DNA from: a phage
Reading direction: 5' to 3' (one strand)
Length of the DNA stretch: 64,000 bases
Sequence record: PZ445448.1
Position numbers and translations under genes: made by a program
Shown here: piece after piece, positions 1,758 to 62,897 of the stretch
Layout: every line of letters starts with the position of its first letter
Numbering within the stretch: the first letter of the stretch is position 1
Notes under the pieces: generated by a model
The model's input: only the letters and a program-made list of their open reading frames with translations
Told to the model about the DNA's origin: nothing
The model's database searches: none

Positions 1758-2126
1758 ATGGAACAAATGAACGATCAAGAGTCGGTTGCGATGAACGAGC
1801 AAGAACAACCTCAAGAATTTTTCTTAGGGTTAAGTAAAGATCAAGTGTCTCTTTTGCTAGTGCTTTCTTCTTTCATGGGAAGACTTCAGGAGCTCACACA
1901 ACAACCGGAGGCTGAACAATTATTTCAGGCTCTGCGTGAAGAAGAAAAATATCGTCGTTTGGACTATGCCTTAGGTTGGGTAGCTCAACAACGAGATATG
2001 CTGATGGCCCTCTCTGGGACCACAAGTTTTGCAATGGGCCTGTTGGCTCAAGTTCAGGACAAATTAATTCAAGCAGGGTTTGCACACACGGCAAACACTA
2101 ACGAAGAACAAGGAGACAAAGAATGA
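1758..2126 (+). CDS. hypothetical protein
   Basis: ATG after TCGGAGATT SD. Confidence 0.5.
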   Translation: MEQMNDQESVAMNEQEQPQEFFLGLSKDQVSLLLVLSSFMGRLQELTQQPEAEQLFQALREEEKYRRLDYALGWVAQQRDMLMALSGTTSFAMGLLAQVQDKLIQAGFAHTANTNEEQGDKE

Positions 2127-3349
2127 GCGTTATTCAACAATTCGCTAACCCGATGAATCCGCGTGAAACTGTTTTACTGGCTCACGGCATGATTAAACGC
2201 GTCAGCATCAAGCCTATCAAAGGTGCTGATCCTACAACAGGTATTAAAACCACTGTGTGGCAAGGTAAGAAAATTGAATCCAGCCACACCATCTCTTTAC
2301 TGATTTCTGAACTGGATTCCTCTGATAACCTACTTCAAGGTGGTGAAGAAGTTTGGATCAGTATGGGCGATAAGCTGCTTAAACCGGGTCATCAAGACTC
2401 TGTCTCTGTTAAAATTGATGACAAGTGGGAAACCGTAACGCCAGGATGGATCGTAAATATCCCTTTGAAGGCAAACGAGCATAACGGTAAGACCTACTAC
2501 AAAGGCTCACTGGCTAAGATGGTTAAGCTGGGTGCAGGAGAGGCTCCAGCAGCGACTCAGCAGCAAAAACAGCAACAAGGTGCACAATCACAAGGCCAGA
2601 AGCAGAAACCTCAGCAGAATGCCAATCAGGACGTTTTACGCATCTATGGTGATGTGACTCAGATTGTTGGCAACGTGGTTACTGTAAATGATCACAAGAT
2701 TGGCGAAGGTGCTATGGTTGTAACTGATGAGCAGCTTAAAGACCTGGTGGTAGGTGGTCGTGTTGCAGCCATTGTGGACAAAGACACCGGAAACATTATC
2801 AGTGGTTTCAAAGCCTACCCACCTAAGGCAGAGAACGGCACTCAAGGCCCTGGTGGCAAGCGTAAATCCTCTTACGACCCTATTGGTGTGGAGACGGGGC
2901 ATAGCATCAATGCGTTGCAGATCATCCTGGATCGTGGGTTTAAGGTAGACGACCCACTAGGCGTGGCTAAAACACTGCACGTAGTCACCATCGAGCTTAA
3001 GAAAGAGTATGCTCAAGCCACCAACCGAACTGAAGATGAAGTAGGTGCCAGTGTCGGTAATGCGGTGTTGAACGCTTGTCGCCGTATTGACAAGAAAACG
3101 AAAGTTGATGATTTTGCAGCGGCAATTACTGCAGAAGCAAAAGATGTCTTGACTAATCTGGCTGAGCCGTTGTACGATTGGATCAAGAACGGTGCTGGGT
3201 CAACTGACCATCAAGAACCTCAGGCTGCCAAACAGGAAGCAGCTCCACAGCAAAACACTGTAGACGCTCCTCCTGTAAATGATGGGGAAGATGACCCGAT
3301 GGATCAGAATCCAGCACAGTATGACTTCTGTGATGACATACCGTTTTAA
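2123..3349 (+). CDS. SSB-like protein with Gln-rich linker and C-terminal YDFCDDIPF tail
   Basis: C-terminus DFCDDIPF matches the conserved acidic tip of bacterial SSB (DFDDDIPF); ATGA overlap with upstream gene. Confidence 0.55.
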   Translation: MSVIQQFANPMNPRETVLLAHGMIKRVSIKPIKGADPTTGIKTTVWQGKKIESSHTISLLISELDSSDNLLQGGEEVWISMGDKLLKPGHQDSVSVKIDDKWETVTPGWIVNIPLKANEHNGKTYYKGSLAKMVKLGAGEAPAATQQQKQQQGAQSQGQKQKPQQNANQDVLRIYGDVTQIVGNVVTVNDHKIGEGAMVVTDEQLKDLVVGGRVAAIVDKDTGNIISGFKAYPPKAENGTQGPGGKRKSSYDPIGVETGHSINALQIILDRGFKVDDPLGVAKTLHVVTIELKKEYAQATNRTEDEVGASVGNAVLNACRRIDKKTKVDDFAAAITAEAKDVLTNLAEPLYDWIKNGAGSTDHQEPQAAKQEAAPQQNTVDAPPVNDGEDDPMDQNPAQYDFCDDIPF

Positions 3350-3363
3350 CAATTAGTTAACAT

Positions 3364-3393
3364 AGCCCTGCCCGAAAGGGTGGGGCATTTTTG
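3364..3393 (+). terminator. intrinsic terminator (GC stem, GAAA loop, T-run)
   Basis: GCCCTGCCC GAAA GGGTGGGGC followed by ATTTTT. Confidence 0.6.
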
Positions 3394-3411
3394 TATAAGG
3401 AGATCTGAAAA

Positions 3412-3924: not shown

Positions 3925-4122
3925 ATGATTTATCGAATCCGTGTAAGAGAAGATGCACCAGGCTGTTACTTTGACTGGCGTGGGTGGTGGTTTCTCCACC
4001 CAATGGATGGACTCACAGATAGAATGCTGGATGCTGCCCTTTATACAGATACCGACATAGAGTATAATCTTTATCTGAAGGATGGTATAGATAACGGCCT
4101 GTTTGAAGCAATTCCTGTGTAA
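3925..4122 (+). CDS. hypothetical small protein
   Basis: ATG after ACAGGAGGCC SD; TTGACA promoter at about 3826. Confidence 0.45.
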   Translation: MIYRIRVREDAPGCYFDWRGWWFLHPMDGLTDRMLDAALYTDTDIEYNLYLKDGIDNGLFEAIPV

Positions 4123-4247
4123 GAGACTGTGATAGCCATGTTTTATGATCTTCCTGTAGCACCACCTGTTGAACCTGGAGAACTAAGATGATCTATGAAA
4201 TGCCAAAATTGATCCGTGACGATGCCTAAAACGCTCACACCATTATT

Positions 4248-4613
4248 ATGGGCAAACGCATGGATATTATTTGTCATAAAGATTTCTGGGAAGGAAGTTA
4301 CTTCACAGAATATTTTGGTAAACTGGACAATGGTCTGCTGATCCAGTTCTACACCGATGCGGAAAACAACATTCACTGGGAGTTCGAAACTGAAGATATC
4401 CATAAACTTTTCACCTTCCTCGGTATTAAGGTTGAGGCCAAGTTTGAAGAAGGTGAGTGCGACGATTGTGGATTCTATGAGGTAACAGATTTCTATCTCC
4501 CGAGTGGTGAGAACCTTTACTATGAGAGTCACTTCGGAAACACCAACATGCCTCAAAGCTGGGAAGAATTTTTCAGTATCGTAGAAGAGGAGCTGGCATA
4601 CCGTGATTATTGA
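4248..4613 (+). CDS. hypothetical protein
   Basis: ORF in plus-strand array; weak SD. Confidence 0.4.
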   Translation: MGKRMDIICHKDFWEGSYFTEYFGKLDNGLLIQFYTDAENNIHWEFETEDIHKLFTFLGIKVEAKFEEGECDDCGFYEVTDFYLPSGENLYYESHFGNTNMPQSWEEFFSIVEEELAYRDY

Positions 4614-5061
4614 TACTGTAAAGGGAGATTTAATCTCCCTTTTTAAGAGCGGTGCTGGTCACCTAATCCACGGTTGTAACTGCTTCCACACAATGGGTAA
4701 GGGCATAGCAAAACAGATTGCCCGTGAGTTTCCTCAAGCATTGTCAGCCGACAAAGAGACCAGACACGGTTGCCTAAGTAAACTGGGTGCGTTCTCCCGA
4801 TGGGAGCACTTATCTCCGAGAGGTATTGTCTACGGAATCAATCTGTATACTCAGTTCTACCCAGGGCCTAATGCTGAATATTTCTCAATCCTGAAAGGCT
4901 TTGAGCTAGTCAATGAGGTATTCGAGGGATCGACTTTACCATTCTACATCCCTAAGATCGGGTGCGGCATAGGCGGTTTGAAGTGGGAGCACGTAGAGGA
5001 CGTTATTAACCTCGCCACTTTTGATATAGATATTATCGTGGTGGAGTACAAAGAGTGTTGA
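4603..5061 (+). CDS. macro-domain protein (ADP-ribose binding/processing fold)
   Basis: motifs HGCNCFHTMGKGIA and IPKIGCGIGGL resemble macrodomain Gly-rich loops. Confidence 0.5.
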   Translation: MIIDTVKGDLISLFKSGAGHLIHGCNCFHTMGKGIAKQIAREFPQALSADKETRHGCLSKLGAFSRWEHLSPRGIVYGINLYTQFYPGPNAEYFSILKGFELVNEVFEGSTLPFYIPKIGCGIGGLKWEHVEDVINLATFDIDIIVVEYKEC

Positions 5062-5086
5062 CAGCCGACTTTTGAGATGGTATAGT
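5058..5086 (+). promoter_or_regulatory. sigma70-like promoter TTGACA-N17-TATAGT
   Basis: consensus -35 and near-consensus -10 with 17-nt spacer. Confidence 0.45.
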
Positions 5087-5117: not shown

Positions 5118-5318
5118 ATGGAGACTAAAATCTTAATTCTGGCTGTGATAGATACGACCGAAGGGGCCGTGTTCGAATCTGCAGGAGGGTATTTCTACCT
5201 GCCCTACGGAAAAATAACTTCCGAACCGAGTAAAGATTCAATCCTTAAAGTGTTCCCTTGTGCTTTCTGGCTGGAGATTCTAGTAGAAGATTGCAGAGGA
5301 TTGGGGAGAGAATTATGA
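5118..5318 (+). CDS. hypothetical small protein
   Basis: ATG after GAGAGGGAGC SD. Confidence 0.4.
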   Translation: METKILILAVIDTTEGAVFESAGGYFYLPYGKITSEPSKDSILKVFPCAFWLEILVEDCRGLGREL

Positions 5319-5509
5319 GAAACAAGAAAGAGCTTTATTCTGGCGAGTGGATCAACGATCAACAGGTCGGAGAGGTAACCTGCTTCCGGTGTTTTACTCG
5401 GTACAATCTTAAAACTGCACCAAAAAGTGTTCCAAAGACTGACGGTTATTACATAAAAGAACCTCATTGCCCAAAATGTAAATGCCGATTGTACTGGAGC
5501 AATCTATAA
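5315..5509 (+). CDS. zinc-ribbon small protein (CxxC...CxxC)
   Basis: ATGA overlap with upstream gene; TCFRCF and HCPKCKC motifs. Confidence 0.45.
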   Translation: MRNKKELYSGEWINDQQVGEVTCFRCFTRYNLKTAPKSVPKTDGYYIKEPHCPKCKCRLYWSNL

Positions 5510-5513
5510 GAGG

Positions 5514-5541
5514 TTGACATCTGAAAACTGCAGTGTATAGT
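5514..5541 (+). promoter_or_regulatory. sigma70-like promoter TTGACA-N16-TATAGT
   Basis: -35/-10 hexamers. Confidence 0.45.
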
Positions 5542-18442: not shown

Positions 18443-18461
18443 TTTTTTAACTGAATTATCA

Positions 18462-18486
18462 AGGGGCTTAGGCCCCTTTCTTTTTG
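18462..18486 (+). terminator. intrinsic terminator closing the plus-strand array
   Basis: AGGGGCTTAGGCCCCT followed by TTCTTTTTG. Confidence 0.65.
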
Positions 18487-18489
18487 TCT

Positions 18490-20950
18490 GCTCTTCCTCC
18501 TACCACAAACGGCCCAGCCTGGCAAGTGGAATAATTGACTAGCCATCAATCCCACACACTGTACAAATATACATGGAAAATAACTATTGCATAATTTTTC
18601 ATTGTGTGGTAGCAGGTCCATTTTTACCCGTTTTCTCTCTCAAAATTGCACGTAATGCCGCTATTGCACAAAATTTAACCTGATGCACATCTTCAATATC
18701 TTGTCAACAACTAAAAATCTTTATAAGTCATACACTTACACACTCACAAAAGCGTGTTCTACGTGAAAAATCGAGTATAACTATAGCCGCCAGATCTCAG
18801 AATTTACGTACGCTCACCATTCTATAGTCTGCTAAGTATTTATTCCAACCATGGAATAACGGAATAGTCAATACCTGCATAAAATAATTATTCGTGTAAA
18901 CTGCATAACATAAATCAGCTCAGGTGTCAACATTTTTCGTAAACAGTCCGAAATTGTCACGGTGAGTTATCATAAACAGAGAAATATTTAGTCGTCTAAT
19001 GTTTACTGTACATTACTATACTGACTGGAATCATTAGATGACTAAGAGAAAGATAAGAAATAATTAACAATACAATTATTTTATCTGTAACAATAAGGCA
19101 ACTATGCAAACGAATGGCATGGCGCGACGGAGTCGCGACATAATATAAAAGCAGTAACCATCACCCCCGTGATAGTTTGTCTGCAAACTATTAATCAGAT
19201 CATAGTTGCCTTGTATTTAGTTAATCATGACATAACAAGCAAGGCAACTATAGATCTTCTAATAGTTGCCCTGCTTTTATATTATGTCATAGAAACACCC
19301 GAAGGGGTGACCAAAGGTCACCTGGCATGGCCAGTGAAAGATTATTAACTTGTTAATTGTTAACTTGCTAATTGTTTTCATGCAAACGAATGTCATGGCT
19401 TATCCTATCTGTGTAAACAGTCAAGGTGTAAACTATCCAGGCGTAAACAATCTATACGTGAACAGTGAAACATGAAATAATAACAGTCGTTATTGTGTCG
19501 AAAGTGTATAAGGTGTCATAGTATGTCAGACAAGTTTTTCTCCTCTTTGTCAAGTGCTGCATGAAAAATTTACAAGCTTGTATGGTAGCATTTTTGCTGC
19601 CCTGTTTACATTCAGTTGTGTATGTATAACCCTTGTTGTGTGGGCGTTTAGACGTCTAGACGGTTGGAAGTCCGCAGGTTAATATCTAATCTATTGGCTG
19701 CTAACTATATCCCACACAAATAGTAAGAAATATAATTGTTATGTGCGTAAACAGTAACTCATGTTATCAATCCCTGTATGTATCGCCAGTGGTGCGCATA
19801 ATGGGTATTATGTTAAATTGCCCGTAATGATAACTATTCTCACAATGATAGGTATTCTCATTCACTCCCACAAGATAGGTTGCAAATGTTGTGCCACTGT
19901 GTGAACGGCCTCACCTATTAATTTGCCTCACTGCCTCGATATTTGAGAATTGTTATAAGAATGAGAAGTATTCCCATTTCGTCCGCCTGGCAGCACTCCA
20001 GTCGCTACCGCTCATGACAGGGCAGAACTAGACCCTCTTCAGATATTTCTGGCTGACTCTTCAGGCCTGTGTGGGAAAAGCCAACCTCTCCGGCGGCGGG
20101 GAGGGGTTTGTCAGGAAAATTGCAGGTCAATTAAAAAATTTACGTGGTATATGAAGCGCTCTTCAGGTAAGGCATGTATTATGGGATGAAACCCTCTTCA
20201 GGCAATGATATTTGTGGGTGTGATATTTGCTGGAAAGCCAGATATGACGGGACTCCCGGCGGGGCAGGGGTAGTACAGACAGGGGAAATATGGAGGATGT
20301 AGTTGGGGGAGTTGATCAAACAGGTAGAGTATGGAATATGTTACAAGTATGTTAAATATGGAGGGTGGATATCTGTAGGATTTATGTGTAAAATCAAAGA
20401 CTTAAGTGGTGTTGTGGTATTTTCTATAAATAATTCAAGTTTAATAGGTAATATTTGTCTCTATCCGCTTTGTGTGGTAAACAAATTCAGATGGTGTTGG
20501 TTTACAAGTGTATACATAATATACAAATTAAAGATACAAGAAACCCCCCTCCCCCTTCGGCTACCATTCACCTTTTCCTCTGACTGGTACTTAAACACTT
20601 ATTCAGACTCTTCAGGTTATCACCCATATATCATATGGCAGTGACTGGTGTCCTCCGGCCCCTCTTTCGTCACCCGTCCGCTTCGCCATGCTAATGCCAT
20701 AGCCAATGGTTCGGTTGTTCACCCTGTTCACTCAGGTGTATCTCCATACCCCTTCAAACCGAAGAGAACAGAAAACCCGAATTACTCGGTAAAAGAAAAG
20801 AGAAGAACTTAATTTTATCAGGATAGGCAAGAATGTCAAGGCATGACTGCTCACTAAACAAGCAAACAGTCATGTGTGGGAGGTAAGTGATTGTGGTGGT
20901 AGGAAATTTAGTTGAAAGATGTGTTATAGGTGCTCCCAGCACTTTAGCCG
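18490..20950. repeat. 2.4-kb gene-free repeat-dense region (GTAAACAG iterons, AAGGCAACTAT sites, CTCTTCAGG repeats)
   Basis: no ORF with SD on either strand; multiple short repeat families. Confidence 0.6.
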
Positions 20951-53385: not shown

Positions 53386-54669
53386 TCATTCCAGAACCTC
53401 CCAAGTGTCTGGGTCAACATTTCGGACGCAGATACCGACAGGGAATTGGTAGTTGTTGTCTTCTGTCCTTGATTGATATTTGAAGGTGACAAACTTGCCG
53501 ATCATTTCCTGCATCCTGTCATAGCTACGCTCCTCGTGCGTGCCTTTCATCTTCATTTTAACAATAACACCTTCCTTGTCAACACAGATAAGAACACCTT
53601 CATCATTCTTATCTTTCTCAACGTCAATAACTTTCACCTCTGCGTCGTTGAACTTTTTCCATTTCAATGCTTCAGATGTTCGCTGACCGTACTCGTATTT
53701 ACCGCAGAAATTACGCATGATAGTACCTTCATATCCTTCGGACATGAATATACCAACAGATTCTTCGCAATGATCAACTGTGTACGCAAGCTCTGCGTCA
53801 ACAACCTTGATATGGTCAAGCATCAGAGTGGTAACGGTATCCTCTGCATCCATAAGATCCTTGCAGCGTCCAGACTCTGTTTCTGGATCCCACCACACCT
53901 TGTCGCTAGGAATATCAAAAATGTGATACTCCAGATCGTAGCTACAGTACCCACCGTAACGCAAATCATCACGAACAGGCTCAACATCGACAGGAATATC
54001 TACCTTGTTGAAGTTTTTGTATGTTGATAAGCCTGCCTTAATTGCTGCATGACGGCGTTTTTTATCTGCCTCATAGTCTTTATCGATCTCGGCCTGAATC
54101 TCTTCCTGTGTGCGCCACCGTTTAGCAAGAGACACTATTTTCTGCAAAGGAAGACCATGAATGTATAGTTCCCCATCAAGTTGTTTAATCCCAGTGGTAG
54201 AATGGAAAGAACGAAGTTGCTCTAAAAGCTTTCCTTGAATAGGGTAGGACTTATTACCACGGGAAATAAATTTAGGCTCACCATTTTGGAAAACAACAAG
54301 CAGACGAAGGCCATCTAACTTACGCAAGATCCAGCAAGGTAATTTAAGTGCCTTGCCACGCTTCAGGTAGTCATGCACCAGCATGGGTAAAAGATCAACA
54401 CCCTGCTCGCAATCTTCCATGTTTTCAACATACCCCAGACGGACTTGTTTTTCCCACTTGCTGATAGCCTCAAGCTCGGCCTGTTGCTCAGCTGTAGTCT
54501 CGTTGGCACGACCTACGTTCTTAGGTGTGCATACCGTCTCTTTGTACTGCAGTTTACCATCAAGCTTGCCAAACTCTACGATAACCTTATCACCATCCGT
54601 GAATACTTTCCACTGTTGGTAGCTGCCATCTTTATTCAGTGCGTACAGTGTTGTTTTGATCTGATGCAT
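53386..54669 (-). CDS. ATP-dependent polynucleotide ligase (DNA ligase-like)
   Basis: nucleotidyltransferase motif I KLDGLR; later EGTIMRN and KWKKF motifs. Confidence 0.55.
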   Translation of the reverse strand: MHQIKTTLYALNKDGSYQQWKVFTDGDKVIVEFGKLDGKLQYKETVCTPKNVGRANETTAEQQAELEAISKWEKQVRLGYVENMEDCEQGVDLLPMLVHDYLKRGKALKLPCWILRKLDGLRLLVVFQNGEPKFISRGNKSYPIQGKLLEQLRSFHSTTGIKQLDGELYIHGLPLQKIVSLAKRWRTQEEIQAEIDKDYEADKKRRHAAIKAGLSTYKNFNKVDIPVDVEPVRDDLRYGGYCSYDLEYHIFDIPSDKVWWDPETESGRCKDLMDAEDTVTTLMLDHIKVVDAELAYTVDHCEESVGIFMSEGYEGTIMRNFCGKYEYGQRTSEALKWKKFNDAEVKVIDVEKDKNDEGVLICVDKEGVIVKMKMKGTHEERSYDRMQEMIGKFVTFKYQSRTEDNNYQFPVGICVRNVDPDTWEVLE

Positions 54670-54938
54670 TACTCGGCCTCTTCCTTAAAAATTTTAAACA
54701 TCTCTTCTTTACTCATTACCAACCAGTCTCCCATAAAGTCAACTAGCCAATCTCCCTGGTACAAGACAAGGTTACCAAAAGGCTCGACAAGCTCACACAT
54801 GCGACGAAGATCTCTGGTCCGAACAGGTGACGATGTAAACACACCTGTATCAATCCACCGTTGCAGATCAGATACTGATGAAGAGCTTCCGTCAAACTGA
54901 TGTGCTTCTACAGGTTTAGCAAGATTAAATAACGGCAT
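54669..54938 (-). CDS. hypothetical protein
   Basis: ORF in array. Confidence 0.4.
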   Translation of the reverse strand: MPLFNLAKPVEAHQFDGSSSSVSDLQRWIDTGVFTSSPVRTRDLRRMCELVEPFGNLVLYQGDWLVDFMGDWLVMSKEEMFKIFKEEAE

Positions 54939-55233
54939 TGCAGTCCTCCTTCTGTAGTAGGTCTTTTATAGGATAAACAAGTAAGTGTGGGTCGTAATAA
55001 CGTATAGTCCTATTCTGCCACACTATGAACTTTATTACAACCAAATTTACAATATCTTTATCACCATGTAGCCCAACACACACATTTGTCCATATTTTGT
55101 GGTTGAAGACCTTGCTATCGATGTAGATTTTAGTGTCAAACTTATCCTCCATTCTACCAATAAGTTTGATCAGCTCCTTCATCTGGTCGCCAAACACAGC
55201 ATCTTTTTCAAGATCTCTGGAATGCTTGTACAT
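54925..55233 (-). CDS. hypothetical protein
   Basis: ORF in array. Confidence 0.4.
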   Translation of the reverse strand: MYKHSRDLEKDAVFGDQMKELIKLIGRMEDKFDTKIYIDSKVFNHKIWTNVCVGLHGDKDIVNLVVIKFIVWQNRTIRYYDPHLLVYPIKDLLQKEDCNAVI

Positions 55234-55295
55234 AACTGACTACCTCACTGCATACTTTCCATAGTAAGTAAAGCCGGGTAATCCCGGCTATGTTG

Positions 55296-56009
55296 TTAAA
55301 TATACTCTGTTACATCCTTGAAGCTCGAAGGCTTCATAATCTTACCTTTACTGTCAAGGAATATAATAACTTTATTGCCGTTGTAGAACTCCTCTTTAGC
55401 AACGAAACCTTCGTAGCGACCACCAAAACGACGCTCAAGATCTTTAATCTCCAACTCGATGAGTTGTTCAGCAGGCATATCTGCACTGGCACCGTGTGAA
55501 TGCCGTAGATGGTTGATCCGTGCAAACTTACTGTCATTAGATTTTAGAACCTTCCGCATCATCCCACACACATCCCCGCTAAGCTGGAACAGCAAAGCTG
55601 TTGATAACTCCGCTAGTCGGTAAGCTGACGCTCTTTGCTTGGATGTGTTTTTCGCAGCGATCAGTGTATCATAGAACTCACCGATCTTGAACTTAAGACC
55701 TCGCGGATTATCAAACAGGTTTGACCACTTTTCGTGGTTATCATTAACAAGATAAGCTGCATAACTTGTGACAACGTGAAGATCGCAGGCCTCTTTTAGC
55801 AGGTGATCTCCACCATCACCTTTCTCCAGCTCTTCCAAAACCTCATTGAACTCTTCCTCAATGAAGCTAAGCTGTAATTCGAATGGTGTGTATGATTTTT
55901 TCACTTTAGCTGCCACACGGTTCCAGTTTTCCACCCAGTTGGCAGACCAAAGGTAGTTTTCAGGCTGGGACAGTTTTTCCAGGTTGTCGATCAGTTTAGT
56001 ATTCAGCAT
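55296..56009 (-). CDS. putative MazG-like nucleotide pyrophosphohydrolase
   Basis: IEEEFNEVLEELEKGDGGDHLLKEACDL resembles the MazG EExxE...D metal-binding helix. Confidence 0.4.
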   Translation of the reverse strand: MLNTKLIDNLEKLSQPENYLWSANWVENWNRVAAKVKKSYTPFELQLSFIEEEFNEVLEELEKGDGGDHLLKEACDLHVVTSYAAYLVNDNHEKWSNLFDNPRGLKFKIGEFYDTLIAAKNTSKQRASAYRLAELSTALLFQLSGDVCGMMRKVLKSNDSKFARINHLRHSHGASADMPAEQLIELEIKDLERRFGGRYEGFVAKEEFYNGNKVIIFLDSKGKIMKPSSFKDVTEYI

Positions 56010-56022
56010 TAAAGGTCTCCTT

Positions 56023-56784
56023 TTAAAGTTCCATAAAGTTTTCTACAGTTTCAATAAATGCTTTATCAGAGAAAGCGTCAACAGCACCGTTAAACCATAC
56101 AGGGATCCCGCGATCCTCATATTGATAAAGGTCGCTACGTGAAATGCCACTTCCATCTGCACTCTGCGAATCATACTTGTTTACAATCAGCAGTTTTGTG
56201 CCTTTACAAGTAGCAGGAAACAATTCCCAGTTAAAATTAATAACTGTGTTAGAACAACCTACCAGGATCACCATATCATTGCTTGTGAGAGATGTCAACA
56301 GGTCATACATGTCTGTATACTTAGGAGCAACCTCACCGAAGAACACTACATTGGGCTTAACCCAGGTATACTTGCCTGTATCTACCTCCGTGTATCCGAT
56401 ATTTTTAATTACATCATTACCTTCAGCATCTTCGTAGGTGATTTCAGGCAAATACCCGTGGACATGTAAAATATCTTCATGTTTTACACCAGCACGCTCC
56501 AGCAAATCATCTACATTGGTAGTAAGGTTGATCACACGACCAGACCAGCGGGAATACCACTCAGCGATCCGAAGATGTGCAAGGTTAGGATCAACACTGC
56601 CCAGAGCTACACGACGTGCATTGTAAAAGTCATGCACCTTATAGTAGTTCTTGGCAAAGGTGTGGATGTTGCACACCTCATCGATGCTGAAATTCTCCCA
56701 CATTGCAGTGCTACCAGATCGGAAAGTGGGAATACCAGATTCAGCGCTCAAACCAGCACCGGAGATAATAATCAGTCGTCGCAT
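56023..56784 (-). CDS. Sir2-family NAD-dependent deacylase / ADP-ribosyltransferase
   Basis: GAGLSAESGIPTFRSG Rossmann/NAD motif at N-terminus. Confidence 0.75.
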   Translation of the reverse strand: MRRLIIISGAGLSAESGIPTFRSGSTAMWENFSIDEVCNIHTFAKNYYKVHDFYNARRVALGSVDPNLAHLRIAEWYSRWSGRVINLTTNVDDLLERAGVKHEDILHVHGYLPEITYEDAEGNDVIKNIGYTEVDTGKYTWVKPNVVFFGEVAPKYTDMYDLLTSLTSNDMVILVGCSNTVINFNWELFPATCKGTKLLIVNKYDSQSADGSGISRSDLYQYEDRGIPVWFNGAVDAFSDKAFIETVENFMEL

Positions 56785-56792
56785 AAGTGTCC

Positions 56793-57143
56793 TCAGTAGA
56801 TGTTTTGTTTAATCTCTATTCCAAACTTCTTGAATGAGTCAGCAGCAAGCATAAATTTACGAGCTGCCGATGGATTAGAAGTATGCACGAAAATAATCAC
56901 GTTGTCAATAAGTGGTGGCTTTCCGAATACAAGTTTCTCCTCTAGCGCAGAGAAGCAGTCGTACCCTTCAAGCACTTCACCTAGATCATTGTCAAAATGC
57001 CACTCAGAAACGCGCCTGTAGAGCTTTCTATTATCGTTAATAAAATCCATGAACTCAGAAGAGTTCTTCAGCCAAAGAGCATCTTGGATTCCGTAATTTG
57101 ACGGATCTCTCAAGTCATCTAGCCACACAATCAACTTCTTCAT
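56793..57143 (-). CDS. hypothetical protein (start at MKKLIVW)
   Basis: ATGA overlap with RNA ligase stop; GAGGA SD. Confidence 0.4.
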   Translation of the reverse strand: MKKLIVWLDDLRDPSNYGIQDALWLKNSSEFMDFINDNRKLYRRVSEWHFDNDLGEVLEGYDCFSALEEKLVFGKPPLIDNVIIFVHTSNPSAARKFMLAADSFKKFGIEIKQNIY

Positions 57144-58075
57144 TGCATATAGTCCTCGTTGTGAAAATAGCAATCAAGTATCTCACGGCGTTCCTGCTCC
57201 AGGAGGCAGTTCCACACATCTTCTGTGTAATTGCTACGAATGAAGTTTACCATGCCATAAAACTCTTCGTCAATACGTTTAAAGATATCATCATCCCAAA
57301 TCTTCCAAGCTTTACCCCTCATTACGGCCTTCCGTGCCAAATAGTATGGAGACTTGATCTTCAGCTGCAGGTCATAAGGGTAGTAAGGCTTACGGATCAT
57401 ATACCCTTCGCCCCTTGTTTCTGCAGCTAATTCTTTTGCATAGCTGAACGGGATTTCACGCAAAGTGTGAGGACGTTTTGCACCAAGGTATTTGGCAATC
57501 CCATCTAAAGCTGCTTCTGGTAGCATTATTCCAGAATCATTATATCTGCAACCTATCAAATATGCGCCATGGTCTTCTTGAACAATATGCGGATCTGAAG
57601 GGTGACAAATTTCAAACATGAATGTCATGTTTTCATTGCCCATAACCTTCTTGATAAGATCTAAATTACCACATTGCTCTTGGATGGTTTCCTTTGCAAG
57701 GTTACAATATGGAGAATCAAGAGACCCGGTTGTTGAGAACAATAGGTCACCTTTATGAGATGATACCACACCAAGGAATCCGTTCTTTTTCTCTACCGCA
57801 GTCACAAGCTTATTGTCAGGCAGGTTGGTGGAGTTTTCTCCCAAGTTAAACACTTTTGTGAAGGGCCATGCCACAACATTTCCTTCATTACCTACAACAA
57901 TGCCTCGGCACTCCAGTAAACGAGGGGACAAATGCCATAAATTGTTGTAAAATACTTTTCTAGCATATTTATAGATCTTTAACCCGAGATCTGGGTAATA
58001 CCTACTGGTTACAAGACCTTTGTCAACTAGGTCGTCTGCATTAAAATACTTCATCATACGTTCCTCATTTGTCAT
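57140..58075 (-). CDS. RNA ligase 1-like (T4 RnlA family)
   Basis: LLECRGIVV, KVFNLGEN and VEKKNGFL align with T4 Rnl1 ALECRGIMF, KFFNLNEN and TKEDGSL. Confidence 0.6.
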   Translation of the reverse strand: MTNEERMMKYFNADDLVDKGLVTSRYYPDLGLKIYKYARKVFYNNLWHLSPRLLECRGIVVGNEGNVVAWPFTKVFNLGENSTNLPDNKLVTAVEKKNGFLGVVSSHKGDLLFSTTGSLDSPYCNLAKETIQEQCGNLDLIKKVMGNENMTFMFEICHPSDPHIVQEDHGAYLIGCRYNDSGIMLPEAALDGIAKYLGAKRPHTLREIPFSYAKELAAETRGEGYMIRKPYYPYDLQLKIKSPYYLARKAVMRGKAWKIWDDDIFKRIDEEFYGMVNFIRSNYTEDVWNCLLEQERREILDCYFHNEDYMQ

Positions 58076-58175
58076 TTTGTCAGTCTATCCTGCCACACAA
58101 ATAACCTAGTGTCAACACTTGAAATTAACAAAACAGTTAGATATACTATCGTTGAAATTAAAACGGAGGGTCACT

Positions 58176-58586
58176 ATGTCTAAAATGCTATATATCGTGC
58201 GTGGTCTACCAGGGTCTGGCAAATCAACACTGGCAAATGCGCTATCTTTAGAGGGTCTGTATCCACATTTTGAGAACGACATGTTCTGGTATGACGATGA
58301 CGGCAATTACAACTGGGATGCAAGTAAAGTAACACTCGCAGCGAAATGGTGCAAAGATAACGTAGAAGATATGATGCGTATGGGATACGACCGTATCGTG
58401 GTAAGTAATACGTTTACAAAAGAAAAACATGTGCAGGAATATGTTGACATGGCAATCAGTCATGGGTATAGTTATACCGTGATCGTGGTTGAAAACCTCC
58501 ACGGTAATAAAAGCATTCATGATGTTCCAGACAAGGTTGTGGATCGTATGGAACGCCAGCTTAAAAACTGCATTAAACTTAAATGA
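58176..58586 (+). CDS. P-loop kinase (polynucleotide kinase-like)
   Basis: Walker A GLPGSGKST; GGAGGG SD; divergent from RNA ligase gene. Confidence 0.55.
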   Translation: MSKMLYIVRGLPGSGKSTLANALSLEGLYPHFENDMFWYDDDGNYNWDASKVTLAAKWCKDNVEDMMRMGYDRIVVSNTFTKEKHVQEYVDMAISHGYSYTVIVVENLHGNKSIHDVPDKVVDRMERQLKNCIKLK

Positions 58587-58593
58587 GGAATGT

Positions 58594-59148
58594 ATGAAAT
58601 ACTTTGTAACAAGCGACACACACTTTCTCCACCAGCGGGTCATGGAGTTTGATTCATGTCAAAAACACAGATCTCAGTATGATCACAATCTTGACAGTAT
58701 GAATGCGGGAATCATCGCCGAATGGAACTCTGTTGTGTCACCTGCAGACACTGTGTTCCACTTGGGAGATATTGCGTGCACTAATGATAAGAATATCAAC
58801 AACTTACTTCCAGATATTCTAAATATGTTGAACGGACATATTATTCTTGTTCGTGGCAACCATGACACACGGACGACTGTCAGAATTATGAAAGAGTTCG
58901 GTCATGAGGTTGTAGATTATTACGAGCTTCGCCACAACAAGAATTTGATCTGTATGAGCCATTACCAGTTTGCAAAGTGGAACAGAAAGCCTCACGGATC
59001 AGTCCAACTGTTCGGTCATGCTCACGGAACCACACAGCAGTTGTTTGGCAGGCAGTTTGATGTCGGTTGGGATGTGTGGGGGAGACTCTTACCATTAGAA
59101 GAGGCATACCGTATTGCAATGAGTCTTGCTATTGACAGCTGGGAGTAA
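58594..59148 (+). CDS. metallophosphoesterase (calcineurin-like phosphatase)
   Basis: motifs TSDTHF, GDIA and RGNHD. Confidence 0.6.
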   Translation: MKYFVTSDTHFLHQRVMEFDSCQKHRSQYDHNLDSMNAGIIAEWNSVVSPADTVFHLGDIACTNDKNINNLLPDILNMLNGHIILVRGNHDTRTTVRIMKEFGHEVVDYYELRHNKNLICMSHYQFAKWNRKPHGSVQLFGHAHGTTQQLFGRQFDVGWDVWGRLLPLEEAYRIAMSLAIDSWE

Positions 59149-62084: not shown

Positions 62085-62159
62085 GCCCTGTTAGCTTAGT
62101 GGATAAAGCAGCGGCCTTCTAAGCCGTTGACACTGGTTCGAGTCCAGTACGGGGTGCCA
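62085..62159 (+). tRNA. tRNA-Arg (anticodon TCT)
   Basis: cloverleaf folded by hand: acceptor GCCCTGT/ACGGGGT, anticodon loop CTTCTAA, T-loop TTCGAGT, encoded CCA. Confidence 0.75.
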
Positions 62160-62163
62160 AATT

Positions 62164-62250
62164 GGGGAGTTATCCCGTAGAGGTAGCGGTGTAGACTGTA
62201 AATCTATTGTCATTGCGACTCGGGTGGTTCGACTCCACCACTCCCCACCA
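62164..62250 (+). tRNA. tRNA-Tyr (anticodon GTA), long variable arm
   Basis: acceptor GGGGAGT/ACTCCCC, anticodon loop CTGTAAA, T-loop TTCGACT, CCA. Confidence 0.7.
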
Positions 62251-62364
62251 AATTTATATTTTTAGATGCATAAATAATACAGATAATGGCATTGATATTT
62301 ATCGTCGTTTATACTAGTCACTAACTGCTCGAAAATCAGTGTCATTATCAGTATAATTTATAAA

Positions 62365-62455
62365 GGAGGGTAGGGAGCAATGGTGCTCAAGCGGTCTTGA
62401 AAACCGTCCCGTTGAGGATGACTCGATGATGGTTCGATTCCATTACTCTCCGCCA
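62365..62455 (+). tRNA. tRNA-Ser (anticodon TGA), long variable arm
   Basis: acceptor GGAGGGT/ACTCTCC, anticodon loop CTTGAAA, T-loop TTCGATT, CCA. Confidence 0.65.
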
Positions 62456-62553
62456 CATTGTTGACCTTGTAATTAAGCGAAAGCCGGAAGCAGAACCGGA
62501 TTATCAAATGTTACAGTCGTCATCGCCGACTAGCAACATGGTCAACATACTGA

Positions 62554-62650
62554 GCTAGGTAAGCCCTTTGGCAAGGGCGAGGATTTTTAATCCTGAAAAT
62601 AGACGAGGTAGTCGTTGAATACATAGGTGGTTCGATTCCATCACCTAGCA
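62554..62650 (+). ncRNA. 97-nt tRNA-like element with irregular anticodon region
   Basis: perfect 7-bp acceptor GCTAGGT/ACCTAGC, D-arm, T-loop TTCGATT, but about 10-24 nt too long and no clean anticodon stem. Confidence 0.35.
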
Positions 62651-62657
62651 CCTTTTT

Positions 62658-62733
62658 GCTGATGTAGCACAATCGGTAGTGCAATTGATTTGTAATCAAT
62701 AGGTTGTAGGTTCAAGTCCTGCCATCAGCACCA
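62658..62733 (+). tRNA. tRNA-Thr (anticodon TGT)
   Basis: acceptor GCTGATG/CATCAGC, anticodon stem ATTGA/TCAAT loop TTTGTAA, CCA. Confidence 0.8.
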
Positions 62734-62734
62734 A

Positions 62735-62809
62735 GGCCCTGTAGCTGGAAGGTTCAAGCAAGCGACTCATAATCGCCAGACGGTGGTTCAATTCCACCCA
62801 GGGCCACCA
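62735..62809 (+). tRNA. tRNA-Met or Ile2 (anticodon CAT), elongator type
   Basis: acceptor GGCCCTG/CAGGGCC with G1-C72, anticodon loop CTCATAA, CCA. Confidence 0.7.
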
Positions 62810-62820
62810 AATAGTAAATA

Positions 62821-62897
62821 CTCCGCGTAGCTCAGCTTGGTAGAGCGCCTGATTTGGGATCAGGAGGTCGAGTGTTCGAATCACTCCGTGGAGACCA
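62821..62897 (+). tRNA. tRNA-Pro (anticodon TGG)
   Basis: D-arm GCTCAGCTTGGTAGAGC, anticodon stem CCTGA/TCAGG loop TTTGGGA, T-loop TTCGAAT, CCA. Confidence 0.8.

Follow-up and report, generated by a model that had tools for sequence, protein, structure and literature searches.

A stand-alone macrodomain gene of an rV5-like coliphage with a predicted Asn/Gln active site and a probable role in reversing DarT2 modification of DNA

The window analysed here is the whole 64,000-nucleotide stretch of sequence record PZ445448.1, which belongs to a Vequintavirus, an rV5-like coliphage. A macrodomain gene lies on the plus strand at 4603..5061, with a GTG start, a TGA stop and 152 codons for amino acids, as defined by the ORF list together with Pfam, PHROG, AlphaFold2 (AF2) and Foldseek. 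The GTG aligns with Met1 of both T4 Tk.4 and the homologue of phage W115, and 4603 is therefore taken as the correct start; a Shine-Dalgarno-like GAGGAG (4587..4592, plus strand) was read from the sequence 10 nt 5' of it. The gene sits within a long plus-strand block of small genes, which the initial annotation had labelled early. Its orthologue in phage HeinrichReichert is bas58_0093, and near-identical genes in GenBank bear the labels "macro domain protein", "phosphatase" and "O-acetyl-ADP-ribose deacetylase". Purifying selection was found among rV5-like phages of informative divergence, with dN/dS of 0.18-0.30. Furthermore, blastn against 5,426 complete E. coli genomes returned 0 matches, which argues that the gene is neither a recent capture from E. 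coli nor a resident prophage gene. It is a real, conserved gene of a kind that is widespread in phages and has been described before.

The upstream gene (4188..4613, plus strand; ORF list and PHROG 8157) has no assigned function and no Pfam match, and its 3' end runs 11 nt into the macrodomain gene. Its PHROG match begins at profile position 21, for which reason the true start was placed about 20 codons earlier, at 4188, in agreement with the annotation of bas58_0092. The two genes are probably co-transcribed and translationally coupled. A consensus scan gave a candidate sigma-70-like promoter, TTTATA-17-TATAAT (10/12), at 4040..4068 on the plus strand, 5' of the two-gene unit; near-consensus sites of this type are present in the region, and the total count of sigma-70-like sites there is not above the shuffled expectation, which lends no support to early expression. 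Ten flanking genes were compared with PHROGs and Pfam. All are of no assigned function except one with a phage zinc-binding domain (5258-5509), so that no functional partner was found locally, and none of the ten matched DarT or any other ART. In rV5-like phages the genes for the primase-helicase and the DNA polymerase precede the macrodomain gene by a few kb.

The assignment to the macrodomains, proposed in the initial annotation from two Gly-rich motifs, is borne out by sequence, profile and predicted structure alike, and both motifs fall within the ORF. In an HMM search, PF01661 matched the protein with 28.5 bits (E 1.6e-6) at a gathering cut-off of 22 bits; the same Pfam family is precomputed on many of its homologues. 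PHROG 335 matched with an E-value of 2.9e-60, and the family profile reached PDB macrodomains with E-values down to 2.3e-19. The AF2 model of the 152-residue protein has a pLDDT of 94.4 and a pTM of 0.90, and its predicted fold is the three-layer alpha/beta/alpha macro fold. Foldseek with this model gave a probability of 1.00 to TARG1, Poa1p, DarG, BT1257 and SCO6735, and 173 PDB matches at E <= 0.001, with TM-scores of 0.7-0.84 to solved macrodomains. The same five proteins provided the significant PDB sequence matches, while TTHA0132 and viral X-domains ranked far lower with much weaker scores. By sequence and predicted fold, the protein is assigned to the ALC1-like/TARG1 class as a stand-alone and putatively catalytically competent macrodomain. 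A name of MacroD/YmdB-type O-acetyl-ADP-ribose deacetylase or "RNase III regulator" was rejected, since the closest structures are all of the ALC1-like/TARG1 class; the name, whose second form is used in some records, is judged to be an inherited COG label.

Three motifs outline the predicted active site. Motif 1 (residues 23-36, HGCNCFHTMGKGIA; 4669..4710, plus strand) contains His23, Asn26 and a Gly-x-Gly phosphate-binding loop, and aligns with H24, N27 and K34 of SCO6735, N22 of DarG, and H23 and S30 of Poa1p. Among 70 homologues G24, N26, G34 and A36 are invariant, and H23, C27, M31 and G32 are at least 90% conserved. Lys33, which corresponds to Lys34 of SCO6735 in the alignment, varies in the family and is Ser in T4 and Ala in the consensus. 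Motif 2 (residues 80-84, NLYTQ; 4840..4854, plus strand) has Gln84 where DarG and TARG1 carry their catalytic Lys (K80 and K84, respectively); N80 and Q84 are invariant in the 70 homologues, and Q84 aligns with Gln85 of SCO6735. Motif 3 (residues 116-126, IPKIGCGIGGL; 4948..4980, plus strand) is the second Gly-rich loop, lying over the diphosphate and distal ribose, and aligns with PRIGCGL(D/A)(R/G) of TARG1/SCO6735 and with PPLGVGNGGL of DarG. G120 is invariant in the same homologues, and P117, I119, G122 and G125 are conserved. The glycines of both loops (G32, G34, G120, G122 and G125) are thus conserved or invariant throughout the 70 homologues, and ADP-ribose binding is predicted. That N26 and Q84 never vary among homologues so divergent points to selection on catalysis. 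In these alignments the phage clade lacks the catalytic lysine of DarG and has an invariant Gln (Q84) and Asn (N26), as does SCO6735, which cannot remove ADP-ribose from DNA thymidine without them. This Gln/Asn detail of the T4/rV5 clade seems to have gone unremarked before.

SCO6735 (PDB 5E3B) and the Bacteroides protein BT1257 (2FG1/2AFC) have the best family profile-to-PDB scores, 2.3e-19 and 3.5e-17, and both share the N-x-x-x-Q motif. H24, N27, K34 and Q85 of SCO6735 are matched by His, Asn, Lys and Gln of the window protein, and in neither is a catalytic Lys or Asp present. The two differ in that identity is about 26%, Gly24 stands in place of Val25, and SCO6735 is a chromosomal protein of Streptomyces coelicolor rather than a viral one. 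SCO6735 takes ADP-ribose off DNA thymidines and protects cells against DarT, and its activity is lost in Q85A, N27S and K34E mutants (PMC9411070). Its extended basic mobile loop (K89, K94) has been proposed to clamp DNA; this loop, which follows the Gln, is missing from the window protein and T4 Tk.4, both of which have a gap of 5-6 residues relative to SCO6735/BT1257. The pI of the window protein is 6.1, mildly acidic, versus 9.7 for SCO6735.

The DarG2 macrodomain (M. tuberculosis 5M3I; T. aquaticus 5M31/5M3E) is the best single-sequence PDB match (8.1e-8) and shares the fold (TM about 0.75), the conserved Asn, the Gly-rich loops and the presumed substrate. In fact, the only PADLOC and NCBIfam matches of the window protein are to DarG, and to its macrodomain part alone: NF048014 gave 48.5 bits (cut-off 250) over profile positions 2-143 of 338, and the PADLOC match covers positions 3-141 of 329. 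The catalytic Lys80 of DarG is replaced by Gln84, the C-terminal DarT-binding domain is absent, and there is no adjacent darT. DarG proper was rejected on these grounds, the score being far below the cut-off. Human TARG1/OARD1 (4J5R/4J5S) has the best TM-scores (0.77-0.84) and is similar in size, topology and the PRIGCG motif, but its Lys84/Asp125 dyad is Gln84/Gly124 in the window protein, and a Ser occupies the position of Asn26. Yeast Poa1p (6LFQ-6LFU) is the top Foldseek match (5.1e-10), and its motif 1 is nearly identical (IHSCNCNGSWGGGIA vs IHGCNCFHTMGKGIA), with H23 even at the same residue number. H23 is conserved in the window protein and T30 aligns with S30 of Poa1p, whose profile score is below those of BT1257/SCO6735. 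Poa1p also differs by a large insertion, by a TM-score of only about 0.7 with an rmsd above 4 A, and by its substrate, a soluble phosphate ester (ADP-ribose-1''-phosphate) rather than a glycosidic bond. At the position of Gln84 Poa1p presumably has a Ser.

The closest comparison with a known phenotype is T4 Tk.4. Over 153 columns, the full length, the window protein shows 40% identity and 64% positives to Tk.4 (E 8e-42), and both fall in PHROG 335 territory, which places them, on alignment, in the same family of phage macrodomains, that of the Tk.4 protein named AdfM. Identity rises to 69.5% with the macrodomain that the T4-like phage W115 encodes in the tk.4 slot, flanked by vs and tk, as the positional orthologue of tk.4. 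Tk.4 and the window protein are both stand-alone macrodomains of about 150 residues, present in one copy per genome, with identical HGCNCFHTMG and NLYTQ motifs. They differ in phage family and in gene position, the T4 gene being between vs and tk.3 and the rV5-like gene among small uncharacterised genes past the replication module, as well as in Lys33 (Ser in T4) and motif 3 (GCGIGGL versus GAGIGKG in T4). A DarTG2 phenotype is known for the T4 gene alone. Only tk.4 among the T4 genes was depleted on DarTG2 hosts, and a clean tk.4 knockout sensitised T4 to DarTG2; Tk.4 was named AdfM (anti-DarT factor macrodomain) because T4 needs it for growth on such hosts (HIDEN-SEQ preprint 10.1101/2025.11.20.689424). 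The evidence in this preprint is genetic, and enzymatic removal of ADP-ribose is presumed there (10.1101/2025.11.20.689424).

PhiKZ gp104, the chimallivirus AdfM, is likewise a stand-alone phage macrodomain that counters DarTG2, and it removes DarT2 ADP-ribose from DNA in vitro (PMC13309987). Its identity to the window protein is about 20-25% (E 7e-5); the Asn is kept (N23), but the site is of the Lys type (FPTK, K78) as in DarG, in contrast to the Gln of the window protein, and the PhiKZ protein is imported into the phage nucleus. The PhiKZ AdfM is thus a separate Lys-type lineage sharing a name with the T4 AdfM. Three distant homologues are found within phage DNA-replication modules that also encode DnaB, primase, helicase and UDG, and none of the three has a darT neighbour.

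In DarTG2, the DarT2 toxin ADP-ribosylates thymidines in the ssDNA of the phage and blocks its replication. The function considered most likely for the window protein, with a probability of roughly 0.6, is removal of this DarT2-made ADP-ribose from phage ssDNA. After infection of a DarTG2 host, DarT2 would mark the thymidines and replication would be blocked; the 152-residue enzyme would then be made from the non-structural gene block of the phage. Its two Gly-rich loops would bind the ADP-ribose while Asn26 and Gln84 hold its distal ribose in place; water-mediated cleavage of the thymine-ribose bond would then release free ADP-ribose and restore normal DNA, as extrapolated from SCO6735. With the C-terminal DarT-binding domain of DarG absent, the protein would be an "orphan antitoxin", one whose target is the damage rather than, or more than, the toxin. 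The initial annotation had suggested reversal of host ADP-ribosylation immunity, and this role fits, by homology only, the SCO6735 signature and the T4 tk.4 DarTG2 data, the sole experimental evidence on this protein family; DarT2-modified DNA as the target and the Gln-type active site were not named in it.

Several features temper this reading. Sequence is a poor guide to macrodomain specificity (Iyer et al. 2022, PMC9503650), and 40% identity to T4 Tk.4 is no guarantee of the same substrate. The missing DNA-clamping loop of SCO6735 and the family-wide variation at Lys33 speak against an anti-DarT2 enzyme, as does motif 1 (H-x-C-N-C, Thr30), which is Poa1p-like. Acidity counts weakly against a role on DNA: PhiKZ AdfM, a validated case, is itself acidic, more so than the window protein, and overall charge or pI was for this reason rejected as a proxy for DNA binding. 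A literature search found no DarTG2 test of Vequintavirinae or rV5-like phages, and for the transposon screen of the rV5-like Bas54 no DarTG2 test is reported.

The main alternative, though an unlikely one, is housekeeping of soluble ADP-ribose derivatives: as an ADP-ribose-1''-phosphate phosphatase or an O-acyl-ADP-ribose deacylase, the protein would clear the by-products of an NAD+-consuming repair module of the phage. Such a module is present in the window at 53386-59148, with genes for a DNA ligase, a SIR2-family protein (98 bits), a cREC_REC protein (a cyclic-phosphate-processing domain), a T4 Rnl1-like RNA ligase, a kinase and a metallophosphoesterase; PADLOC gave no matches on the SIR2, cREC and ligase genes. 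A sirtuin in this same neighbourhood of "Escherichia phage V5", which has no adjacent Macro gene, was predicted to be KptA-like and to generate ADPr>P (Iyer et al. 2022, PMC9503650). The lead of Poa1p in Foldseek is in line with this alternative, as is the alignment of H23 and T30 with H23 and S30 of Poa1p, both mutated in Poa1p crystal structures, and TARG1 is also called O-acetyl-ADP-ribose deacetylase 1. However, the macrodomain gene and the SIR2/cREC/ligase locus are about 51 kb apart and on opposite strands, and thus do not form one operon. The SIR2 gene (1011 records) is found mainly in T5-like, rV5-like and phAPEC8-like phages, whereas the macrodomain family (2726 records) is abundant in T4-like phages, of which no genome appeared in a spread sample of SIR2 matches; the differing distributions indicate that the two are not obligatorily coupled. 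Gln84 is invariant, and Poa1p presumably has a Ser in its place. The equivalent Gln is essential to the glycohydrolase activity of SCO6735 (PMC9411070), and the DarTG2 phenotype of the T4 orthologue (10.1101/2025.11.20.689424) also speaks against this alternative. The soluble-derivative idea is the source of the historical "A1pp phosphatase" annotation.

A combination of the two is somewhat less probable still: a dual-purpose enzyme might reverse DarT2 marks and also supply the "missing" Macro step of the phage sirtuin-cREC-Rnl1 RNA repair, converting ADP-ribose-1''-phosphate or O-acyl-ADP-ribose from the SIR2 enzyme of the phage into ADP-ribose. If true, the phage would encode every step of an NAD+-dependent route for tRNA repair, which to date exists only as a prediction. 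In a related and similarly improbable reading, the Gln-type phage clade would have a broader or different substrate range than the Lys-type DarG and PhiKZ AdfM.

Equally doubtful is removal of ADP-ribose from protein or RNA, the marks coming from other host ART toxins or defences, or from phage transferases or sirtuins, and not from DarT2 on DNA. SCO6735 and TARG1 also act on glutamate-modified protein (PMC9411070), TARG1 is active on phosphate-end ADP-ribosylated RNA and DNA (PMC11833690), and the SIR2-family protein of the phage itself could ADP-ribosylate targets. Nonetheless, SCO6735 has no activity on guanosine- and 2'-OH-linked ADP-ribosylation of RNA (PMC11833690), and no ART gene lies near the macrodomain gene. 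T-even phages carry Tk.4 and yet are robustly blocked by the mRNA ADP-ribosyltransferase system CmdTAC (PMC11618068); on that account, the Tk.4 family does not obviously reverse the CmdTAC mark.

It is improbable that the protein binds or degrades ADP-ribose-derived immune messengers (Thoeris gcADPR, His-ADPR, N7-cADPR) to keep a signalling defence silent. Macrodomains do bind His-ADPR, as in the Thoeris II effector ThsA, and phage Macro domains were argued, on context, to target mainly low-molecular-weight ADP-ribose derivatives (Iyer et al. 2022, PMC9503650). Against this, the literature search found no experimental precedent for the phage Gln-type clade, the invariant residues are those that SCO6735 needs for hydrolysis of a glycosidic bond (PMC9411070), and DarTG2 is the only reported phenotype of the T4 orthologue. 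Neutralisation of DarT2 mainly by stoichiometric binding of the toxin, instead of enzymatic DNA repair, is just as improbable: catalytically dead SCO6735 (Q85A) did inhibit DarT in vitro more than dead DarG or TARG1 (PMC9411070), but the invariance of N26 and Q84, a sign of selection on catalysis, and the lack of a dedicated DarT-binding domain speak against it.

For the rV5 phages the result is correct but ordinary, and no long-standing question is opened by it; Macro domains occur in about 41% of myoviruses (Iyer et al. 2022, PMC9503650). What it adds is that the name "AdfM" spans two unrelated macrodomain lineages, the T4/rV5 one having a predicted SCO6735-type Asn/Gln site and no catalytic lysine. 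Small and well-behaved, this protein family would be well suited to studying how ADP-ribose is taken off DNA without a catalytic lysine. E. coli and many pathogens carry DarTG systems; for rV5-like phages, which are candidates for therapy with a broad host range, an AdfM-type gene helps to forecast the defences unable to stop them. A NADAR-type anti-DarTG1 gene has also been reported in some rV5-like phages.

The plus-strand open reading frame at 4603-5061 (GTG start, TGA stop, 152 aa) encodes a macrodomain protein. The initial annotation had placed a macrodomain at exactly this frame in the plus-strand block, and both peptides that it quoted were found, HGCNCFHTMGKGIA of motif 1 at residues 23-36 and IPKIGCGIGGL of motif 3 at residues 116-126; an HMM search against the Macro family agreed, with a Pfam score of 28.5 bits, above the curated threshold of 22. 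PHROG 335 was matched with an E value of 2.9e-60, a profile of 70 homologues reached solved macrodomains with E values down to 2.3e-19, and an AlphaFold2 model built from the same alignment (pLDDT 94.4, pTM 0.90) retrieved TARG1, Poa1p, DarG, BT1257 and SCO6735 in Foldseek with probability 1.00 and TM 0.7-0.84. The family assignment is no chance resemblance. Of 50,697 phage records, 2,726 contain a homologue, and Macro domains were reported in ~41% of myoviruses (Iyer et al. 2022, PMC9503650). The gene is a member of a very common, already annotated phage family, labelled 'macro domain protein' (KP869102), 'phosphatase' (NC_022323) or 'O-acetyl-ADP-ribose deacetylase' (PP488543) in near-identical phages. 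In Felix O1-like phages, a homologous macrodomain (~33% identity) forms the N-terminus of a longer protein of 261 aa, annotated 'putative phosphatase', and is fused there to additional C-terminal sequence; the whole gene occupies 3995-4780 of the segment analysed from Felixounavirus JLBYU32.

A Shine-Dalgarno sequence, GAGGAG, lies at 4587-4592, 10 nt 5' of the GTG, and the preceding gene (4188-4613) runs 11 nt into the frame. Homology backs the GTG as start codon: in alignments, residue 1 coincides with Met1 of both T4 Tk.4 and the homologue from phage W115. In phage SYGMH1 (1501-1959 of the segment analysed from MW883061), the deposited coding sequence begins at an internal Met31 (1591), which would remove the His23/Asn26 portion of motif 1, while the GTG at 1501 aligns with Met1 of the T4 and W115 proteins. 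The gene is maintained by selection, since dN/dS among rV5-like orthologues was 0.18-0.30 in the pairs with informative divergence.

T4 Tk.4 aligns with the window protein over its full length at 40% identity and 64% positives (E 8e-42), and the motifs HGCNCFHTMG and NLYTQ are identical in the two. With a T4 transposon library on a host carrying DarTG2, tk.4 was the single significant hit, and a clean knockout rendered T4 DarTG2-sensitive, the gene being named adfM; enzymatic removal of ADP-ribose by T4 AdfM is a presumption in that HIDEN-SEQ preprint (10.1101/2025.11.20.689424). The function of the family in T4 was published in 2025. In W115, a T4-like Krischvirus, the gene of the 'macro domain protein' takes the place of tk.4, flanked by vs and tk, and its product shares 69.5% identity with the window protein; this indicates that T4-like and rV5-like phages have exchanged the gene laterally.

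When the sequence alone was searched against the PDB, the macrodomain of DarG from M. tuberculosis came first (8.1e-8), followed by Poa1p, BT1257, SCO6735, T. aquaticus DarG and TARG1; with the family profile, BT1257 (2.3e-19) and SCO6735 (3.5e-17) led, and TARG1, DarG and Poa1p trailed at ~1e-16 to 4e-16. Because the profile moves BT1257 and SCO6735 above DarG, the family forms a distinct clade within the ALC1-like/TARG1 class. DarG was the sole match in the PADLOC defence library (3.3e-14, profile positions 3-141 of 329) and in NCBIfam (48.5 bits, cut-off 250), both matches spanning the N-terminal macrodomain alone. Identity as DarG itself was rejected: the protein is DarG-like but has neither a DarT-binding domain nor an adjacent toxin.

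The active site is decisive here: seven residues, G24, N26, G34, A36, N80, Q84 and G120, are invariant in the 70 homologues. In alignments, Q84 falls where DarG and TARG1 have their catalytic lysine (K80 and K84, respectively) and where SCO6735 has Gln85 and BT1257 the equivalent glutamine, while Asp125 of TARG1 is matched by a glycine at position 124. His23, Asn26, Lys33 and Gln84 stand at positions equivalent to those of SCO6735, but the window protein lacks the basic loop of 5-6 residues after the glutamine, carries Gly24 in place of Val25 and is mildly acidic. In one of these alignments, the residues of BT1257, SCO6735 and M. tuberculosis DarG were copied out of HMMER alignments, and the TARG1 sequence agrees with the TARG1 segment of the HMMER profile alignment. 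The family uses an SCO6735-type Asn/Gln site, not the DarG lysine. SCO6735 takes ADP-ribose off thymidine in ssDNA and protects both E. coli and S. coelicolor against DarT; its Q85A mutant has lost activity, N27S and K34E retain almost none, and a lysine-independent, water-mediated mechanism was proposed by its authors (PMC9411070). PhiKZ gp104, also named AdfM, removes DarT2 marks in vitro with a DarG-like active site, N23/K78 (Cell Reports 2026, PMC13309987). Since gp104 is distant from the window protein (~20-25% identity, E 7e-5) and Lys-type (FPTK), the name AdfM covers two macrodomain lineages, that of T4 and rV5 being Gln-type; no statement of this distinction was found in the literature searched. 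Only three additions are of note: the placement of the gene in the T4-type AdfM family, the recognition of the Asn/Gln site in that family and, as a possibility, a tie to the SIR2-cREC-RNA ligase module of the phage.

Most likely, the window protein is an orphan, antitoxin-like ADP-ribosylglycohydrolase that strips DarT2-made ADP-ribose from thymidines in phage ssDNA, a reading to which we give a probability of about 0.6. The fold, family membership, conserved catalytic signature, Tk.4 homology and purifying selection are established directly; the literature contributes the behaviour of T4 tk.4 on DarTG2 hosts and the SCO6735 chemistry, and we infer that the window protein shares that substrate and phenotype. 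Reversal of host ADP-ribosylation-based immunity, as initially suggested, is supported by the Tk.4 homology and the SCO6735-type site. The glycohydrolase reading draws contextual support from distant homologues, which on phage-like contigs of 88-94 kb lie inside replication modules (DnaB, primase, DEAD helicase, AAA_24, UDG), and no DarT was found adjoining them there.

An unlikely alternative, though the best of the rest, is a Poa1p-like ADP-ribose-1''-phosphate phosphatase completing a SIR2-cREC RNA-repair pathway. The window carries an RNA-repair-type module at 53386-59148, matching the predicted 'phage V5' sirtuin neighbourhood: an ATP-dependent DNA ligase (53386-54669, minus), a 237-aa frame without a Pfam match, 'Sir2-like' in relatives' annotation (55296-56009, minus), a SIR2-family protein (56023-56784, minus; Pfam 98 bits), a cREC_REC cyclic-phosphate-processing protein (56793-57173, minus), a T4 Rnl1-like RNA ligase (57140-58075, minus), an AAA_33 kinase (58119-58586, plus) and a metallophosphoesterase (58489-59148, plus). 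With 'Escherichia phage V5' as prototype of the SIR2-cREC-ligase neighbourhood, the sirtuin was predicted to act KptA-like in RNA repair, making ADPr>P that is opened by cREC, and it was remarked that no Macro gene is adjacent (PMC9503650). A Poa1p-like phosphatase would complete that pathway, and motif 1 is strikingly Poa1p-like, H23 and T30 aligning with Poa1p H23 and S30. However, the macrodomain gene lies 51 kb from the module on the opposite strand, and the SIR2 gene occurs mainly in T5-like, rV5-like and phAPEC8-like phages, with no T4-like genome in a spread sample of its matches, whereas T4-like phages carry the macrodomain family in abundance. Poa1p presumably has a serine at the invariant-Gln position, which also counts against a phosphatase. 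The DarTG2 phenotype of the T4 orthologue points the same way (10.1101/2025.11.20.689424). Anti-DarT2 and RNA-repair functions are not mutually exclusive, and a tie to the module is possible.

Slightly less probable still is reversal of protein or RNA ADP-ribosylation, as SCO6735 does not act on RNA marks that are guanosine- or 2'-OH-linked (PMC11833690) and T-even phages are still sensitive to CmdTAC, an mRNA ADP-ribosyltransferase system (PMC11618068). Very improbable are degradation of ADP-ribose-derived immune signals and, equally, purely stoichiometric DarT binding, although an inactive SCO6735 mutant still inhibits DarT by binding it (PMC9411070).

The window belongs to a Vequintavirus, an rV5-like coliphage of ~136 kb; the macrodomain surroundings are 96-98% identical to isim, HeinrichReichert (Bas58; orthologue bas58_0093), MaxTheCat and A6-1, and 40-64 kb is 98.7% identical to A6-1. 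GenBank MG0656xx 'Campylobacter phage' (C. jejuni) records share 96-100% identity with this E. coli Vequintavirus in both the macrodomain region and the SIR2 gene, and are probably mislabelled or contaminant assemblies. The macrodomain gene belongs to a long series of small genes on one strand, with primase-helicase and DNA polymerase genes a few kb upstream; its ten nearest neighbours are PHROGs of unknown function, with a phage zinc-binding domain (5258-5509) as their sole Pfam match. Plus-strand sigma-70-like promoters with 11/12 matches lie at 5058-5086 (TTGACA-17-TATAGT, the TTGACA overlapping the macrodomain stop codon) and 5514-5541. Early expression, as initially supposed, is plausible but unproven, because such promoters around the gene show no excess over shuffled expectation.

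Directly 3' of the replication genes, a plus-strand 408-aa frame (2123-3349; PHROG 4477, unknown function) encodes a protein that has long low-complexity stretches rich in Gln, Pro and Ala, ends in an acidic tail and gave no match in a Pfam scan. Between this gene and the next (19372-19950 of the segment analysed), Bas58 carries a putative homing endonuclease, bas58_0089, where the window has only a 62-nt spacer (3350-3411) with a GC-rich terminator-like hairpin (3365-3386, plus); SYGMH1 has an 'endonuclease VII' gene immediately 5' of the same conserved gene. The site looks like a mobile-endonuclease insertion polymorphism.

At the convergence of the plus and minus gene blocks, ~2.3 kb (~18450-20750) holds no ORF of at least 60 aa and is AT-rich (GC 0.36), with direct and inverted copies of ATAGTTGCC(T/C)TG at 19088-19288 and a perfect 18-nt inverted repeat (19137-19154 / 19271-19288). 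The equivalent ~2 kb gap in Bas54 tolerated zero transposon insertions (10.1101/2025.11.20.689424), and the region is possibly an origin of replication or some other essential non-coding element. Finally, a plus-strand cluster of seven tRNAs (Arg-tct, Tyr, Ser, Thr, Met, Pro) lies at 62085-62897 and includes a 99-nt tRNA-like gene (62554-62652), to which ARAGORN assigns a 4-base anticodon and Rfam only 35.5 bits.
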